64,000 nucleotides of DNA from a virus. Lineage: Duplodnaviria > Caudoviricetes. The notes under the pieces were generated by a model. It ran no database searches, had not been told where the DNA came from, and worked only from the letters and a program-made list of their open reading frames with translations. This document shows positions 9,027 to 16,648 of the stretch, one piece after another (position 1 is the stretch's first letter; each line of letters opens with the position of its first letter). The stretch spans positions 138,705 through 202,704 of the IMG/VR virus record IMGVR_UViG_3300044712_000786. One strand, 5' to 3'. A program made the translations under genes and the position numbers.

Positions 9027-10316
9027 TCATTTATTCAACTCAAATCCATGAATCTTAAACCTATGTTGAACTTCATCCCAAACCGCATTCAATACAGCGG
9101 GGTCTTCATGAACTTTCCCGTTATGAACATCAGGATGAATAGCCTTAATTCTCTCCATGTATTTTTCCTTAGCCAGCTTTAAAACATCTTTATGTTCCAT
9201 TGGACGGCTCCAAAAACGATGACGCTTGTTAGGCCCCGCCCGAAGTCTCCCCTGAATCGTCTTTCCATTCCTGCCATACATATGGCTAGGCTGGTTCATA
9301 TCGTTCTTTTTCAGTCCTAAGTATCTGAGCATCATGGTAATACTGGCAGTCTTGGGATTAATCTTATTAACTTCTATCGGTTTTTCATCATCCCCGTATT
9401 CCTTACTTTCCTTTTTCTTGAAGGATTCTACGGCAACCGAATCAGAAAGCTTGCTTTTCCTAATAGACTCGATATATTCACCTAAAGACTTAATAGAGTC
9501 TTGAGCGTCATCTATGGCAGACTTCATTTCTTGGAGAGAATCTATAGGAGCCGTTTCGAACATAGCTTCGAATTTTTTGGCATCTACAGATAAAAGATTA
9601 TCGAGAAATGCATTCGTTTTTATTAAAAACCTCTTAATAGAATACGTCCCATTAAATAGACGAAGCCTATTTGTCTTATCAGCGTCAACGCGAATGTCCT
9701 TCTCTCTAACTGTCACCGCTATTAATTTTCTCGCCTCATCAATAGAACATCGATTTGTGCTAATAGTGTTAGCAAGTTTTACTTGTTCTTCTTTGGGAAT
9801 ACCCACGAGTAAAGAGCAAATATAATAACTAAGCCGATTTCCTTCGGAAACCATAGGGCCAGCCAACTTTTGAACATCAGGCTCCAAAGTAAGAATTTTA
9901 GCGACTAAACACACCCAACTTTGAGACCTACCTAATTTTTCTCCGATTTCGCGCTGGCCTACCTCTAACTCTAGAAGGTGCTCGATAGATTGGGCAACCT
10001 CTAGGGGGGTAAGAGTATCTCTTTGTAAATTCGTAGTAAGAGACAAGAATAACTGCTCTACTTCCGTTTCTACACGTTTTACGACAGCATCTATATTCTT
10101 GTAACCTAGCTCCTTACATGCGGCAAGACGCTTCTTTCCGTCAATTAATTCGAAAAATTCTCCTTCGTCATCTATAGGTTTTACTATGATAGGAACATTC
10201 AAACCATATTCATCTATGCTGTGTATCAATCCATTTAGAGAATCCTGATTAATGAATTGGCAAGGATTATTTGCAAATTGGCGAATGTTATCGATTTGGA
10301 TAGACTTGATGTCCAT
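9027..10316 (-). CDS. ParB/Spo0J-family protein with C-terminal J-like (HPD) domain
   Basis: GLNVPIIV...LIDGKKRLAACKELG, NLQR, HTH QREIGEKLGRSQSWV; C-terminal KYMERIKAIHPD. Confidence 0.8.
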   Translation of the reverse strand: MDIKSIQIDNIRQFANNPCQFINQDSLNGLIHSIDEYGLNVPIIVKPIDDEGEFFELIDGKKRLAACKELGYKNIDAVVKRVETEVEQLFLSLTTNLQRDTLTPLEVAQSIEHLLELEVGQREIGEKLGRSQSWVCLVAKILTLEPDVQKLAGPMVSEGNRLSYYICSLLVGIPKEEQVKLANTISTNRCSIDEARKLIAVTVREKDIRVDADKTNRLRLFNGTYSIKRFLIKTNAFLDNLLSVDAKKFEAMFETAPIDSLQEMKSAIDDAQDSIKSLGEYIESIRKSKLSDSVAVESFKKKESKEYGDDEKPIEVNKINPKTASITMMLRYLGLKKNDMNQPSHMYGRNGKTIQGRLRAGPNKRHRFWSRPMEHKDVLKLAKEKYMERIKAIHPDVHNGKVHEDPAVLNAVWDEVQHRFKIHGFELNK

Positions 10317-10358
10317 TGTTTAAAAATATCAGAAATTTTACGGAACACAAGGAAAAAT

Positions 10359-10436
10359 TGGTGCGGTACGTCGGACTTGCACCGACCTTATTTCAGTTTG
10401 GAAGACTGACGCCATAACTATCTAGGCGACTACCGC
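10359..10436 (-). tRNA. trnG: tRNA-Gly(TCC)
   Basis: TCAGT-CTTCCAA-ACTGA; GCGGTA/TACCGC-A-CCA. Confidence 0.87.
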
Positions 10437-10443
10437 ATTAAAT

Positions 10444-10517
10444 TGGTAGGGCATTTCGGTAACGCTCCGAGACACTAACTTTGTAGGAGTTAGTCAACAC
10501 CTTGGTTGCCATGCCCT
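10444..10517 (-). tRNA. trnV: tRNA-Val(TAC), C33
   Basis: AGGGCAT/ATGCCCT-A-CCA; TAACT-CCTACAA-AGTTA; T loop AGCGTTA. Confidence 0.75.
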
Positions 10518-10800
10518 AATGTAAATCAAAAGAAAAATAGGCTTTAGAACCAACTTCTTTATAAGCCTCTATTGGAAGAAAGTAAACGCCCAACAATTTA
10601 GCAATAACTAAGCCTAAGTCTTTCTTATTGACTCTAAAACAAAAGGATTGATTATCATTAGTGCGTTCATTCCAATCTACGAATTCTAGCGATGGAATTC
10701 TTGCTAAGCATCTTTTTATATCAGAGTGACATCCGCCCCATCCATAATCACAACCATCACTCCAACTATCTAACTTATAATCAGATTTAAATACTTTCAT
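10516..10800 (-). CDS. hypothetical protein
   Basis: Start MKVFKSDY lies 3 nt after tRNA CCA. Confidence 0.65.
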   Translation of the reverse strand: MKVFKSDYKLDSWSDGCDYGWGGCHSDIKRCLARIPSLEFVDWNERTNDNQSFCFRVNKKDLGLVIAKLLGVYFLPIEAYKEVGSKAYFSFDLH

Positions 10801-10803
10801 AAA

Positions 10804-10879
10804 TGGTATCCCCGACTGGACTCCCACCAGTAATCTTCTCCTTAGAAGGGAGTGGCTTTAGTAATTTAGCTACGGGGAC
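10804..10879 (-). tRNA. trnR: tRNA-Arg(TCT)
   Basis: GTCCCCG/CGGGGAT-A-CCA; CTCC-CTTCTAA-GGAG. Confidence 0.87.
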
Positions 10880-10885
10880 TTAAAA

Positions 10886-11157
10886 AAACTAGAGATTGCT
10901 TTTACGCTAAAGACCAGAACATTGTACTTCTGTCTGCCGCTTCTTACTCGGTAGCCCTTAGCCGACTTTACGGCTAGCTCCACGCTTTCATCCCTTCCGC
11001 GAAGGCTCTTACATCCTATTATTAGCTACTAACAGGGTAGGAGAAATCCCTCGTATCGGATTTCGGGGTCATCCTGCGGTTAATTCCGCTCAGGTTCGTG
11101 CGAGAAGGACGAGTCACTTATCATGGATGGCTGTTTCTGAGCCTACCACTCTAGTTT
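10886..11157 (-). ncRNA. 272-nt highly structured ncRNA candidate
   Basis: Perfect 9-bp terminal stem AAACTAGAG/CTCTAGTTT enclosing at least six hairpins; GC-richer than the genome; no ORF. Confidence 0.7.
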
Positions 11158-11257
11158 AAAATTGTATGGTATTAGTTCAGGCTTTTACTGCTCTATAATG
11201 ATACGCTCCACCCATAACGGTTAAGCATGAAGCTGAGCTTTCTGTTCTCGAACAAAT

Positions 11258-11307
11258 TGTGCCCGAAGTGAGGACTCTTACCCCAATTTACGTTGCATCC
11301 CTCGGGC
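11258..11307 (-). ncRNA. minimal tRNA-like element (acceptor + T arm)
   Basis: GCCCGAG/TTCGGGC-A-CA; TGGGG-TAAGAGT-CCTCA; only ~17 nt in place of D and anticodon arms. Confidence 0.4.
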
Positions 11308-11348
11308 TAAGTGCAACCTGCTTTCTGTTCACGCAACATATGGAAGAT

Positions 11349-11424
11349 TGGTGGACACAGGCGGGTAACGCTCCCGCTTCTCACTCCTTGCAAGGGAGGC
11401 ACATCACTTTTCTGTCACTGGCCC
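11349..11424 (-). tRNA. trnA: tRNA-Ala(TGC)
   Basis: G3:U70 in GGGCCAG/CTG-T-GTCC; CTCC-CTTGCAA-GGAG. Confidence 0.85.
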
Positions 11425-11469
11425 AAAATTATTGTTACTTGCGCGGGGAATAACCGTGTAATATAATAT

Positions 11470-11841
11470 ATGAGGCATAGCCCTATAAAATTACTTTGCG
11501 CGTTTTGTAAAGAATCTTTTACTCGACCACTGTCTAAGTTAAAAAATAGTAAATCAAAAATATACTTTTGCTCTCGTCATTGTAAAGACGAGGCTCAAAA
11601 AATAAAGAATAAATTTACCGATATCCACCCATCGCATTACGGAACAGGCTCTTGCAAAGAAACATATAGACGCATTGCTCTAGAAAACCTTCCTCATAAA
11701 TGCAATCGTTGTGGTTACAATAAATTACTAGGCGTATTAGCAGTACATCATAAAGATAGAGACAAATCAAATAATCTAGTTAGTAACTTAGAAATTCTTT
11801 GCCATAACTGTCATGCCGAAGAACATATTCTAAACGATTAA
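11470..11841 (+). CDS. HNH endonuclease with N-terminal Zn finger (probable homing endonuclease)
   Basis: CNRCG...VHHKDRDKSNN...NLEILCHNCHAEEH; antisense to the array; GTGTAAT-N7-ATG upstream. Confidence 0.85.
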   Translation: MRHSPIKLLCAFCKESFTRPLSKLKNSKSKIYFCSRHCKDEAQKIKNKFTDIHPSHYGTGSCKETYRRIALENLPHKCNRCGYNKLLGVLAVHHKDRDKSNNLVSNLEILCHNCHAEEHILND

Positions 11842-11844
11842 AAT

Positions 11845-11937
11845 TGGTACTCCCCGTAGGTAACGCTCCTACACACGGCACTCATCTAGTGCGACTTGGG
11901 CTTATAAGGCCCACGATTCTCTTTGAATTAGGGGAGC
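11845..11937 (-). tRNA. trnI: tRNA-Ile(TAT) with long variable arm
   Basis: GCTCCCC/GGGGAGT-A-CCA; TGGGC-CTTATAA-GCCCA; V arm GCAC-TAGATGA-GTGC. Confidence 0.8.
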
Positions 11938-12012
11938 AAAAAATTACCATCAGGCCATGGTTTACATTACCATCTTTAAGACTTACGGTTTGTATCGTCC
12001 TGATGGACAAAT

Positions 12013-12086
12013 TGGAGCACTATATCGGTACTGCCCCGACTTATCCAGATTGGCAATCTGATGCATCACTTTTATGCTAATAGTGC
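12013..12086 (-). tRNA. trnG: tRNA-Gly(GCC)
   Basis: GCACTAT/ATAGTGC-T-CCA; TCAGA-TTGCCAA-TCTGG. Confidence 0.88.
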
Positions 12087-12092
12087 TGAAAA

Positions 12093-12166
12093 TGGTCCGA
12101 TATGTCAGAATCGCACTGACCCCACAAGTTCCCAAAACTTGCATGCTACTTCAACACCTATATCGG
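12093..12166 (-). tRNA. trnP: tRNA-Pro(TGG)
   Basis: CCGATAT/ATATCGG-A-CCA; CAAGT-TTTGGGA-ACTTG. Confidence 0.88.
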
Positions 12167-12175
12167 AGTGTAAAT

Positions 12176-12259
12176 TGGTAGGCGTAGAGAGACTTGCACT
12201 CCCAAGGCTTCATGGTCCTAAGCCATGCGACTCTGCTATTCGTCCTTAACCATACGCCC
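12176..12259 (-). tRNA. trnL: tRNA-Leu(TAG), enlarged D region, short V arm
   Basis: GGGCGTA/TACGCCT-A-CCA; CATGG-CTTAGGA-CCATG. Confidence 0.8.
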
Positions 12260-12541
12260 ATTAAATAGTTTCCTGAGGATTTCACTCACTTTGTTCCTTC
12301 CCTTTCGTGCCCTACTCGGGAGTCTATCTCATTCCACTAGGTTAACCGATTCAAGAGAAGGGGAGCGCACAATGCTGCTCAACCCCTCAAATCAGTAGAT
12401 AGTTAGTTAACCTCTAAGATTACTTTATCGCCAATCTGGTTCTGCATTATCACAGGCATAACACCAGTTGACCAATCACCTTTTTTGTCGCACTTGGGAA
12501 AGCATGATGGAGTTTGCTTAAACCCAACTCTATCTATCTAA

Positions 12542-15172: not shown

Positions 15173-16648
15173 TCACACAGTCACTTTGTTATAGCGTTCC
15201 TGACCAATAACTTCCATCATCGTGTCATAAGGGGTAAAGTTCTTACCCGATAGGACGGTTTTAAAGATAGAGGGAGAGAAACCACTAACTAAGGTTGCTC
15301 CGCGCTCATCCATTTCAACGGGCGATTGACCCGTATTAACTCTAGCGTCCAAGTTCCAAAATACAACATGAGGAACCTTGTATCCAGCCTTATCAAACTT
15401 TTGCTTGATAGTCTCGAAATTACTCTTGCTATTATTGTCGCAAGCCTTATCGAACTGCATATCAGACAGGATATACAATACGTCAGGCATTTCCTTCTTA
15501 GGAACCTTATTCGCTACAGCAGCATTCAGAATCAAATCAAACGCAGCCTGTAAGTTAGTGTTTCCACCCCAAGGGGCACGCATTACGTTCAAAACCCGCT
15601 CAGTTAAAGAACTTCCTTGCACTTGCAATAAGCTAGGGCTAGCCTCGAAAGTAATGAAGTGATTCTTGAAGAAACCCTCAATTCTTTCTGCCATATAGAT
15701 GCCTAGACCAACACTAACCAACATCGGCTGTCCAGCCATAGAACCCGAAACGTCTACCAAGCAGAGACCATTGTGAGGATTCTCTTCTAAGTAGTTAGGC
15801 AAAGCCCTCCACTGCAACTCAACAGTAGGGTCTACTCCAGACTGAGCCTTTTGGACTAGCTCATGAGGATATAGCACAGACGCATTAATCTTAGCTTCGC
15901 CCGTAGCTACCTTACCAAGGTAAGCAGTATAGCCAATCGGGTCATGCTTGCCGAAAGCCTTTCGATAAATCATGCTGGCGCGAGAAGGAACAGACTCATA
16001 GTCAATCTCGTTCCAATTCTTGGAAGACATCTTTACTTCAACCACGTTAAGGTATTTCCTTAAGGAAGTAAGCATCTTGCGATAAGTCTTAGGAGACATA
16101 TCCAAAGCCTTCATAAGCTTCTTAGCAATAAGAGCCTCCGAAGAACCCTCAGAAGGCATCCACTTAGCCAACAGGGAAATAGCTTCCCCCTTCTTCATAA
16201 GCTTCAAATCAGCTTTAACTTGCTTAACTAAGAACGAGGTAACTTCATCCTCTACCTTAGTGCCAAATAAGCAAAAAAGGTCATCAAAACGACCAAATTC
16301 GGCTACATTAGCCAAGTTTCGAACAACAATTTTGGGATTGTTATTCGCCAACCAGCTTAGCATAGTGCGAAAAGCCTTGCGTTGTCCTTGACCCCCGCGA
16401 ACATCACGGAAGTAAAAGGCAATCTTAGTAGCTAGCAACTTATCTTCGTTGAAAGCGTTGGAGAATAAGCTCAGAACATTAGCTTCGGGGGTATTTCGCA
16501 ATGCGCCACCCAAGGCAAAGAAATCAACCAAGCTGCTCTTAGAAGTCGAAGGAGTGATAGCTCCATTTTCGGTTTGAGTCATAGTGTGAATCTTAGTAAC
16601 GGTCTTAGGTGCCTTACTGTTCTTAATAGCTTTAATTAGTTTGCTCAT
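15173..16648 (-). CDS. Ro60/TROVE-like RNA-binding protein (DUF2828-type with C-terminal vWA)
   Basis: FYFRDVRGGQG, LAKWMPSE, IDYESVPS, vWA MIDAS DVSGSM, GGNTN, SDMQFD, VFWNL, VSGFS. Confidence 0.85.
   Translation of the reverse strand: MSKLIKAIKNSKAPKTVTKIHTMTQTENGAITPSTSKSSLVDFFALGGALRNTPEANVLSLFSNAFNEDKLLATKIAFYFRDVRGGQGQRKAFRTMLSWLANNNPKIVVRNLANVAEFGRFDDLFCLFGTKVEDEVTSFLVKQVKADLKLMKKGEAISLLAKWMPSEGSSEALIAKKLMKALDMSPKTYRKMLTSLRKYLNVVEVKMSSKNWNEIDYESVPSRASMIYRKAFGKHDPIGYTAYLGKVATGEAKINASVLYPHELVQKAQSGVDPTVELQWRALPNYLEENPHNGLCLVDVSGSMAGQPMLVSVGLGIYMAERIEGFFKNHFITFEASPSLLQVQGSSLTERVLNVMRAPWGGNTNLQAAFDLILNAAVANKVPKKEMPDVLYILSDMQFDKACDNNSKSNFETIKQKFDKAGYKVPHVVFWNLDARVNTGQSPVEMDERGATLVSGFSPSIFKTVLSGKNFTPYDTMMEVIGQERYNKVTV

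Follow-up and report, generated by a model that had tools for sequence, protein, structure and literature searches.

The window analysed here, a stretch of 64,000 nucleotides at the end of an IMG/VR phage genome that measures 202.7 kb and bears direct terminal repeats, encodes on its minus strand a 272-nt RNA that is a stand-alone, phage-encoded copy of the GTPase-associated centre (GAC) of 23S rRNA (H42-H44, E. coli positions 1051-1108), with a 199-nt insert placed in the 5′ strand of H44. In the ribosome, the GAC is the 23S domain that binds uL11 and docks translation factors, and its H43 and H44 loops are the parts that meet uL11, EF-G and thiopeptides. It can be stated with high confidence that the window RNA is a GAC mimic and that it belongs to a family of such mimics found in phages. 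The DNA runs that contained the window numbered eight and came from rhizosphere, soil and aquatic metagenomes. The elements of the RNA and the tRNA genes on either side of it are collected in Table 1.

Table 1. Elements of the 272-nt RNA and the neighbouring tRNA genes, with positions in the window and the basis on which each was placed.
Feature	Position	Strand	Basis
Whole RNA, 272 nt, assigned to the phage GAC-mimic family	10886-11157	-	match of model R1
P1 5′ strand AAACUAGAG, H42-like closing stem	11149-11157	-	nine perfect pairs with 10886-10894
P1 3′ strand CUCUAGUUU	10886-10894	-	pairs with 11149-11157
H43 mimic UGGUA-GGC-UCAGAAACA-GCC-AUCCA	11124-11148	-	aligned to GGCUUAGAAGCAGCC of the family and to E. 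coli 1057-1081
Junction UGAUAAG, equivalent of 23S 1082-1088 (UUUAAAGA)	11117-11123	-	covariance-model alignment
Insert of ~199 nt with closing helix (GAC/GUC) and flanking UUU, in the H44 5′ strand	10909-11116	-	closing helix aligned to columns 51-54 and 262-265, a helix that covaries in the family
H44 mimic AGC-GUAAAA-GCA, A1095 equivalent in the loop	10897-10908	-	aligned to GGCGUAAYAGCA of the family and to E. coli AGCGUAAUAGCU
Hairpin GGCU-CAGAAAC-AGCC	inside 11124-11148	-	sequence
Hairpin CCUG(A)GCGG-AAUUAA-CCGCAGG	11073-11094	-	sequence
Hairpin GAAAUCC-GAUACGAG-GGAUUUC	11043-11064	-	sequence
Element CCUAC...AAUAGG	11015-11041	-	sequence
Hairpin CCUUC-GCG-GAAGG	10993-11005	-	sequence
Hairpin AGCCG-UAAAGU-CGGCU	10960-10975	-	sequence
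tRNA-Arg(UCU), beginning 6 nt past the 3′ end of the RNA	10804-10879	-	ARAGORN and Rfam
tRNA-Ala(UGC), low-scoring, 195 nt upstream of the RNA	11353-11424	-	ARAGORN, relaxed threshold only

The presence of this RNA was established by comparison with its relatives. A covariance model, R1, was derived from 32 other members of the family (alignment A2), the window sequence being left out, and it matched exactly 10886-11157 on the minus strand over its full length (model positions 1-165; 51.5 bits, E 7.9e-14). This was the sole hit in the window and the sole place matched in the 203-kb genome. The RNA is more than chance because a model made from the RNAs of other phages recognised precisely these coordinates; the evidence is thus comparative and does not come from the folding energy, which was modestly unusual and did not separate the strands (z -2.09 for the minus and -2.29 for the plus strand). 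An earlier note on this DNA had described a GC-rich, structured non-coding RNA without ORF inside the tRNA array, and that description held. The full-length R1 match lies on the strand of the tRNAs, with tRNA-Arg immediately downstream, and the terminal stem and all of the hairpins claimed are present when the interval is read on the minus strand. No ORF of more than 37 aa overlaps it, and the GC content is 0.44-0.49 at the RNA compared with 0.33-0.39 in the adjoining coding DNA.

What had been overlooked in the earlier note was a likeness to the ribosome, in which the first hairpin and the 3′ end closely reproduce 23S H43 and H44 and are closed off by a stem resembling H42. The 5′ 41 nt and the 3′ 27 nt of the window RNA are joined by the 9-bp closing stem, and in this way H43 with its A1067 loop and H44 with its A1095 loop are rebuilt. 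R1 matched E. coli 23S rRNA at nt 1048-1111 (62.6 bits, E 2e-18), the 103-position insert of the model collapsing to 2 nt, and the joined ends of the window RNA shared 45 of 64 positions with the same E. coli segment (z 5.8 against shuffles). These results indicated a free-standing copy of the uL11- and thiostrepton-binding GAC. With that 58-nt domain of bacterial 23S rRNA the phage RNA has in common the three-helix layout, A1067 in the H43 loop (its equivalent in the window RNA lies within 11132-11140), A1095 in the H44 loop and a UUUAAAG-type junction. It differs from the ribosomal domain in being free-standing, outside an rRNA gene and among phage tRNAs, in having a short stem of free sequence in place of H42 and a 199-nt domain in the 5′ strand of H44, and in its H43 loop, which in the window reads UCAGAAACA and not UUAGAAGCA. 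A 23S rRNA gene or gene fragment was considered and rejected, given that no LSU rRNA match was found in the window and that, beyond an 18-nt match in H43, only chance-level stretches of 8-13 nt could be aligned to E. coli 23S. A 13-nt identity to 23S 1116-1128 was also dismissed (E 5.1, with a differing structural context).

The family to which the window RNA is assigned was sought in viral loci with a degenerate H43 18-mer, GGCTNAGAANCAGCCATC. This H43-like word was found in at least 118 viral loci, none of which carried a 23S gene among the matches listed, only 30-43 nt being alignable to E. coli 23S, and the flanks of the word were conserved and visibly covarying. Sixty-seven distinct elements of 105-416 nt were delimited, and about 100 viral loci yielded at least 94 members of the family. 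Its elements follow the order P1; GGAnGUd-GGCUUAGAAGCAGCC-AUCnUUUAAAGAGUr; a variable insert of 37-342 nt; yUUUGGCGUAAyAGCACA; and the 3′ strand of P1. Covariation was assessed in the 32 short members aligned as A2, with the structure written by hand. In this alignment, 93.1% of the pairing cells held a pair, compared with 68.8% after shuffling and 34-49% when the partners were slid. Two-sided changes were observed in 14 pairs, of which eight make up the whole of P1, two lie at the H43 base and four belong to the insert-closing helix. The H43 loop, together with G1093, U1094 and A1098 of the H44 loop, was invariant or nearly so across the 32 members; A1067 was invariant and A1095 was kept in 31 of them, and positions 1096-1097 varied. 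The fold is under selection in the family, and its loops are nearly identical to the rRNA site.

Members of the family are often found beside tRNA genes. A tRNA or tmRNA lay no more than 50 nt from 33 of 66 members and within 1 kb of 48 of the 66, and all of the tRNAs located within 2 kb of members (242 of 242) were on the member's strand; in 14 of the 66, no tRNA was present in the locus. The member-bearing records range from 23 to 433 kb, and the eighteen that are at least 90% complete measure 55-433 kb. Of 185,579 species genomes, just 44 (MAGs for the most part) contained an 18-mer specific to the 3′ part of the family, and 31 full-length matches were obtained, which indicates that the family is mainly viral. 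Unannotated full-length members were also recognised in four cultured phages, Pseudomonas pf16, Aeromonas 4_4572, Xanthomonas XacN1 and Ralstonia RSP15. The member of XacN1 (L170; AP018399.1, ~150.4-150.6 kb) is placed directly 3′ of a gene annotated as 2′-5′ RNA ligase. In one 174-kb viral record flagged as a provirus, tandem members were observed (L052:5127-5359 and L052:5441-5708), each of them after a tRNA-Pro. A phage tmRNA was found near members in four loci (L021, L032, L041 and L076), at 42 nt in L076 and at about 200 nt in L041; no tmRNA was found in the window's own genome.

The multi-hairpin middle of the RNA, conspicuous as it is in the window, corresponds to the least conserved part of the family. 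The inserts occupy a single site throughout and fall into subclasses with conserved motifs of their own. One of these, ACCCCGUAAnUGGUAAGG, is a conserved hairpin loop located 20 nt before the 3′ block and closed by a covarying stem (L007, L039, L074, L030, L013, L079, L071 and L052, among others). In the largest members (L042:3689-4067 and L076:8577-8990), a hairpin of the insert contains AGUACGGGAGGA or AGUACGAAAGGA, that is, a bulged-G motif like that of the sarcin-ricin loop together with a GNRA loop, which suggests that some members imitate both halves of the ribosomal factor-binding site. At the other extreme, L014:3712-3772 is a member of 61 nt that lacks an insert and amounts to little more than the GAC domain itself (37.5 bits, E 1.8e-8).

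Regarding the insert of the window RNA, the hairpins of 10909-11116 are predicted by folding only, and the fold of the insert is weak (z -1.58). No homologue of these ~199 nt was found in viral contigs, in metagenome contigs, in E. coli 23S or by alignment to the nearest relative, L021, whose insert was not alignable to that of the window. The pattern of a sarcin-ricin-like hairpin (an AGUA ... GA bulged-G motif around a GNRA tetraloop) was sought in the window RNA and was absent, the GAUACGAG loop of 11043-11064 having neither AGUA nor a GNRA loop, and the ACCCCGUAAnUGGUAAGG motif of the other insert subclass was absent as well. A second GAC-like unit nested in the insert (AGGAUGUAAGAGCC...GAAAGCGUGGAGCU) was ruled out by model scores below 0. 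Exact and near-exact patterns of the 5′ subtype of the window RNA retrieved only L021 in viral contigs and none in metagenome contigs. A blastn search of 10800-11500 against cultured phages gave no match, and no related loci were found when they were sought through the neighbouring ParB-like protein.

Among the 94 hits of R1, the window copy is the weakest full-length match. Its H43-like hairpin has the A1067 equivalent, in a loop that reads UCAGAAACA compared with GGC-UUAGAAGCA-GCC in the family, and the two changes involved, U1066C and G1071A, fall at positions that are fixed in 31-32 of the 32 members. According to the covariance-model alignment, the junction is also 1 nt shorter than that of the family. 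In addition, the equivalents of G1087 and C1102 in the window RNA are A39 and U263, which pair with each other; 31 of 32 members have a G-C pair there, so that both sides of the pair have changed to give A-U. The GAC/GUC closing pairs and CUUUAGCGUAAAAGCA align to the block UUU-RGC-GUAANA-GC that follows the insert in the family, and both P1 and the insert-closing pairs are intact in the window copy, which argues against decay. Compensatory changes keep the fold of this divergent copy. Judging from the letters of its loop and junction, where U1066C, G1071A and the shortened junction are found, the window copy may bind less well or may be drifting.

The gene is embedded in an array in which all of the tRNAs of the window (14 of 14, by ARAGORN) are carried by the minus strand. 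The spacer between the 3′ end of the RNA and tRNA-Arg(UCU) reads UUUUAA, and the tRNA-Arg is followed by a 95-aa ORF without known family. The tRNA-Ala(UGC) upstream of the RNA and a tRNA-Val(UAC) at 10444-10517 (minus strand) were missed by default ARAGORN and by Rfam and were recovered only at the relaxed threshold. Both have in common with the tRNA-Ile at 11845-11937 a 3′ end that reads ACCA-AUUU and a T-loop, AGCGUUA, that is unusual (repeat family D1); position 55 of the T-loop is G in other tRNAs of the array. Between tRNA-Ala and the RNA lie about 195 nt of GC-rich non-coding DNA (11158-11352) without Rfam match and without a significant fold on either strand, and an imperfect 14-nt direct repeat, GCTTTCTGTTC(T/A)CG, was noticed at 11237 and 11320. 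The GC-rich 313 nt upstream of the RNA (11158-11470) were considered as a second structured RNA and rejected, with fold z values of +0.57 on the minus and -0.68 on the plus strand and with the low-scoring tRNA-Ala inside.

Other features of this region concern the surrounding genes. A 123-aa HNH endonuclease ORF with an N-terminal zinc-finger-like motif (11470-11841, plus strand; PHROG HNH families, E 3e-12) runs antisense within the array, between tRNA-Ile and the region of the RNA, and is probably a free-standing homing endonuclease. At 12611-12542 (minus strand), a terminator-like hairpin of 13 pairs with a T-run precedes TTGACT-16-TAGAAT with TG, a strong match to a sigma-70-like promoter; as a consensus match, this promoter-like site may start the transcription unit of the tRNAs and the RNA. 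Four kb upstream, on the same strand as the RNA, a 491-aa protein with DUF2828 and DUF7788 is encoded (15173-16648, minus strand; PHROG 850 'RNA-binding protein', E 7e-146), which is said to be Ro/TROVE-like. A link between the RNA and this Ro-like gene was considered and dropped, since DUF2828 occurs in just 5 of 50 member-bearing records.

It was also asked how the RNA relates to systems already described. Rfam 15 returned only tRNAs at gathering scores and noise at E ≤ 10 (10300-12300), with no match at either setting to RNase P, group I intron, 6S, GOLLD, ROOL, OLE, HEARO or tmRNA, and no description of a phage GAC mimic was found in the literature searched. The earlier note had supposed an undescribed or divergent large non-coding RNA, possibly a ribozyme. 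Of this, the absence from Rfam 15 and from the literature bears out the first part, and what has to be given up is a divergent giant of the GOLLD/ROOL kind in favour of the mimic of an rRNA domain with a lineage-specific insert. The ribozyme found no backing, as no catalytic family matched and conservation falls on the nucleotides of an rRNA site that binds protein and factors. GOLLD and ROOL are likewise large structured non-coding RNAs that adjoin phage tRNA genes, but they are longer than the window RNA and have no sequence or structure match to it in Rfam 15. They form RNA-only cages and were not described as rRNA-like in the study of these cages (PMC12286853).

Closer in principle are the leaders of ribosomal protein operons, such as the L10 leader and the L1-binding leader of the L11 operon, which are likewise extra-ribosomal RNAs that imitate the protein-binding site of an rRNA. 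Such leaders act in cis, upstream of the r-protein gene that they regulate, and imitate the site loosely, whereas the phage RNA is a nearly letter-for-letter copy with no r-protein gene nearby or elsewhere in the phage. An r-protein leader was accordingly ruled out for the window, where the sequence downstream consists of tRNA-Arg and the 95-aa ORF without known family and where no uL11 gene is present in the genome. A phage gene that stands alone and reproduces a functional centre of the ribosome is of a different kind from the known rRNA mimics, which are cis-acting r-protein operon leaders. A further parallel is offered by phage tRNA arrays, whose proposed role is to make up for host tRNAs that defence nucleases have cut and which are likewise phage-carried RNA genes of the translation apparatus, here in the same transcription unit. 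Unlike a replacement tRNA, however, the GAC-mimic RNA cannot be built into a ribosome, and it would be a decoy at most and not a replacement part.

Taken as a whole, the best explanation, and one that we regard as slightly more probable than not, is that of a free-standing GAC copy that is made with the tRNAs and serves as a uL11-binding decoy; for the decoy mechanism considered by itself our confidence falls somewhat short of even, and it is advanced tentatively. The RNA would probably be made within the tRNA polycistron and freed by tRNA processing, and an RNase P cut at the tRNA-Arg 6 nt downstream could define its 3′ end. Most likely, it would then bind host uL11 and so display the surface of the base of the ribosomal stalk, acting as a decoy or sponge for whatever recognises the uL11-GAC surface, such as RelA, a translational GTPase, or a toxin or defence effector directed at the GAC. 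The outcome of the decoy may be comparable to what is supposed of phage tRNA genes, which would stand in for host tRNAs under attack, with translation protected or retuned during infection. A uL11 gene was absent from the phage's own genome and from all 50 member-bearing records, bL12 passed the cut-off in only one of these 50, and RelA/SpoT was absent from the own genome. With no partner co-encoded, any protein partner would be that of the host.

A precedent for attack on this part of the ribosome is given by the toxin Tre23, which modifies H44 of the GAC by ADP-ribosylation at nt 1095-1098 and impairs the GTPase activity of EF-G (PMC8661411). Since Tre23 targets that very site, a decoy directed against a GAC-directed attack is plausible. 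We know of no anti-phage system that targets the GAC. A more far-reaching version of the decoy, possible in our judgement but on balance doubtful, is that of an off-ribosome particle, in which a widespread phage RNA replica of the factor-binding site, together with host uL11, would capture translational GTPases, RelA or GAC-directed immune toxins. The largest members would contribute both GAC and sarcin-ricin loop to such a particle, and the window RNA would be a divergent version of it, distinguished by a changed A1067 loop and by a 199-nt effector domain of its own.

Other readings distribute the roles within the RNA, or its target, differently. The GAC part could serve to anchor the RNA to uL11 or to a GTPase, with the work done by the variable insert as a lineage-specific effector or adaptor that brings, for example, another protein or RNA to the stalk proteins. 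The placement of all inserts (37-342 nt) at one site, the subclasses with their own motifs, such as ACCCCGUAAnUGGUAAGG, and the sarcin-ricin-like hairpin of the largest members are in keeping with such an adaptor, but the insert-less 61-nt member of L014 and the E. coli rRNA, which satisfies the model without any insert, indicate that the core alone is a viable unit. Moreover, nothing could be aligned between the insert of the window and that of its nearest relative, and the anchor is considered unlikely. Somewhat less likely again is a role in dampening the stringent response, in which the RNA, as a uL11 sponge, would hold free uL11 or compete for RelA, with less (p)ppGpp synthesised in infection. 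RelA activation is known to need uL11 on the ribosome, and the conserved surface of the family is the uL11 site, as would be expected of such a sponge; against this, a free RNA would capture only uL11 that is not yet on ribosomes, and no RelA/SpoT-like protein is encoded in the phage's own genome to hint at alarmone biology.

It is also conceivable that the RNA has no function in trans and serves the tRNA transcript in cis as part of its structure, for instance as a folded spacer, a processing guide or a stabiliser, which would agree with its tight placement between tRNAs and on their strand, in the window as in half of the family. A spacer, however, need not keep the H43 and H44 loops nearly letter for letter across unrelated phages, nor would it be expected in the 14 of 66 members without a tRNA in the locus, and this reading appears quite improbable. 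The same loops, deviating in the window at positions fixed elsewhere, and the lowest score among the full-length matches would be explained if a captured rRNA fragment were decaying, functionless, in the window's phage. Random decay would not preserve pairing, yet P1 retains nine perfect pairs, G1087-C1102 has changed on both sides to A-U and the insert-closing helix is kept, in a gene that is intact between its tRNAs, which makes decay very improbable. As for a ribozyme or an ornate giant RNA similar to GOLLD and ROOL, suggested by the many hairpins and by a phage tRNA region such as those two occupy, it is hardly credible when no Rfam match appears even at E ≤ 10 and when the conserved part of the RNA is the rRNA-like core and not the ornate middle.

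If the reading of the window RNA and its relatives as free-standing GAC copies is true, phages carry a large and apparently overlooked class of non-coding RNA that imitates a ribosomal functional centre and neither encodes nor regulates anything. The uL11/GAC surface would then be a battleground between phage and host, on which GAC-directed toxins, control of the stringent response and the capture of translation factors may meet. Should the off-ribosome particle prove true as well, it would represent an RNA device of counter-defence or translation control of a kind not described before. The family also constitutes a natural experiment on which nucleotides of the GAC are free to vary while the fold is kept, and the window holds its most divergent full-length member, in which U1066C, G1071A and A-U for G1087-C1102 occur with the fold otherwise preserved. 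The cultured carriers pf16, 4_4572, XacN1 and RSP15 make this reading testable now.
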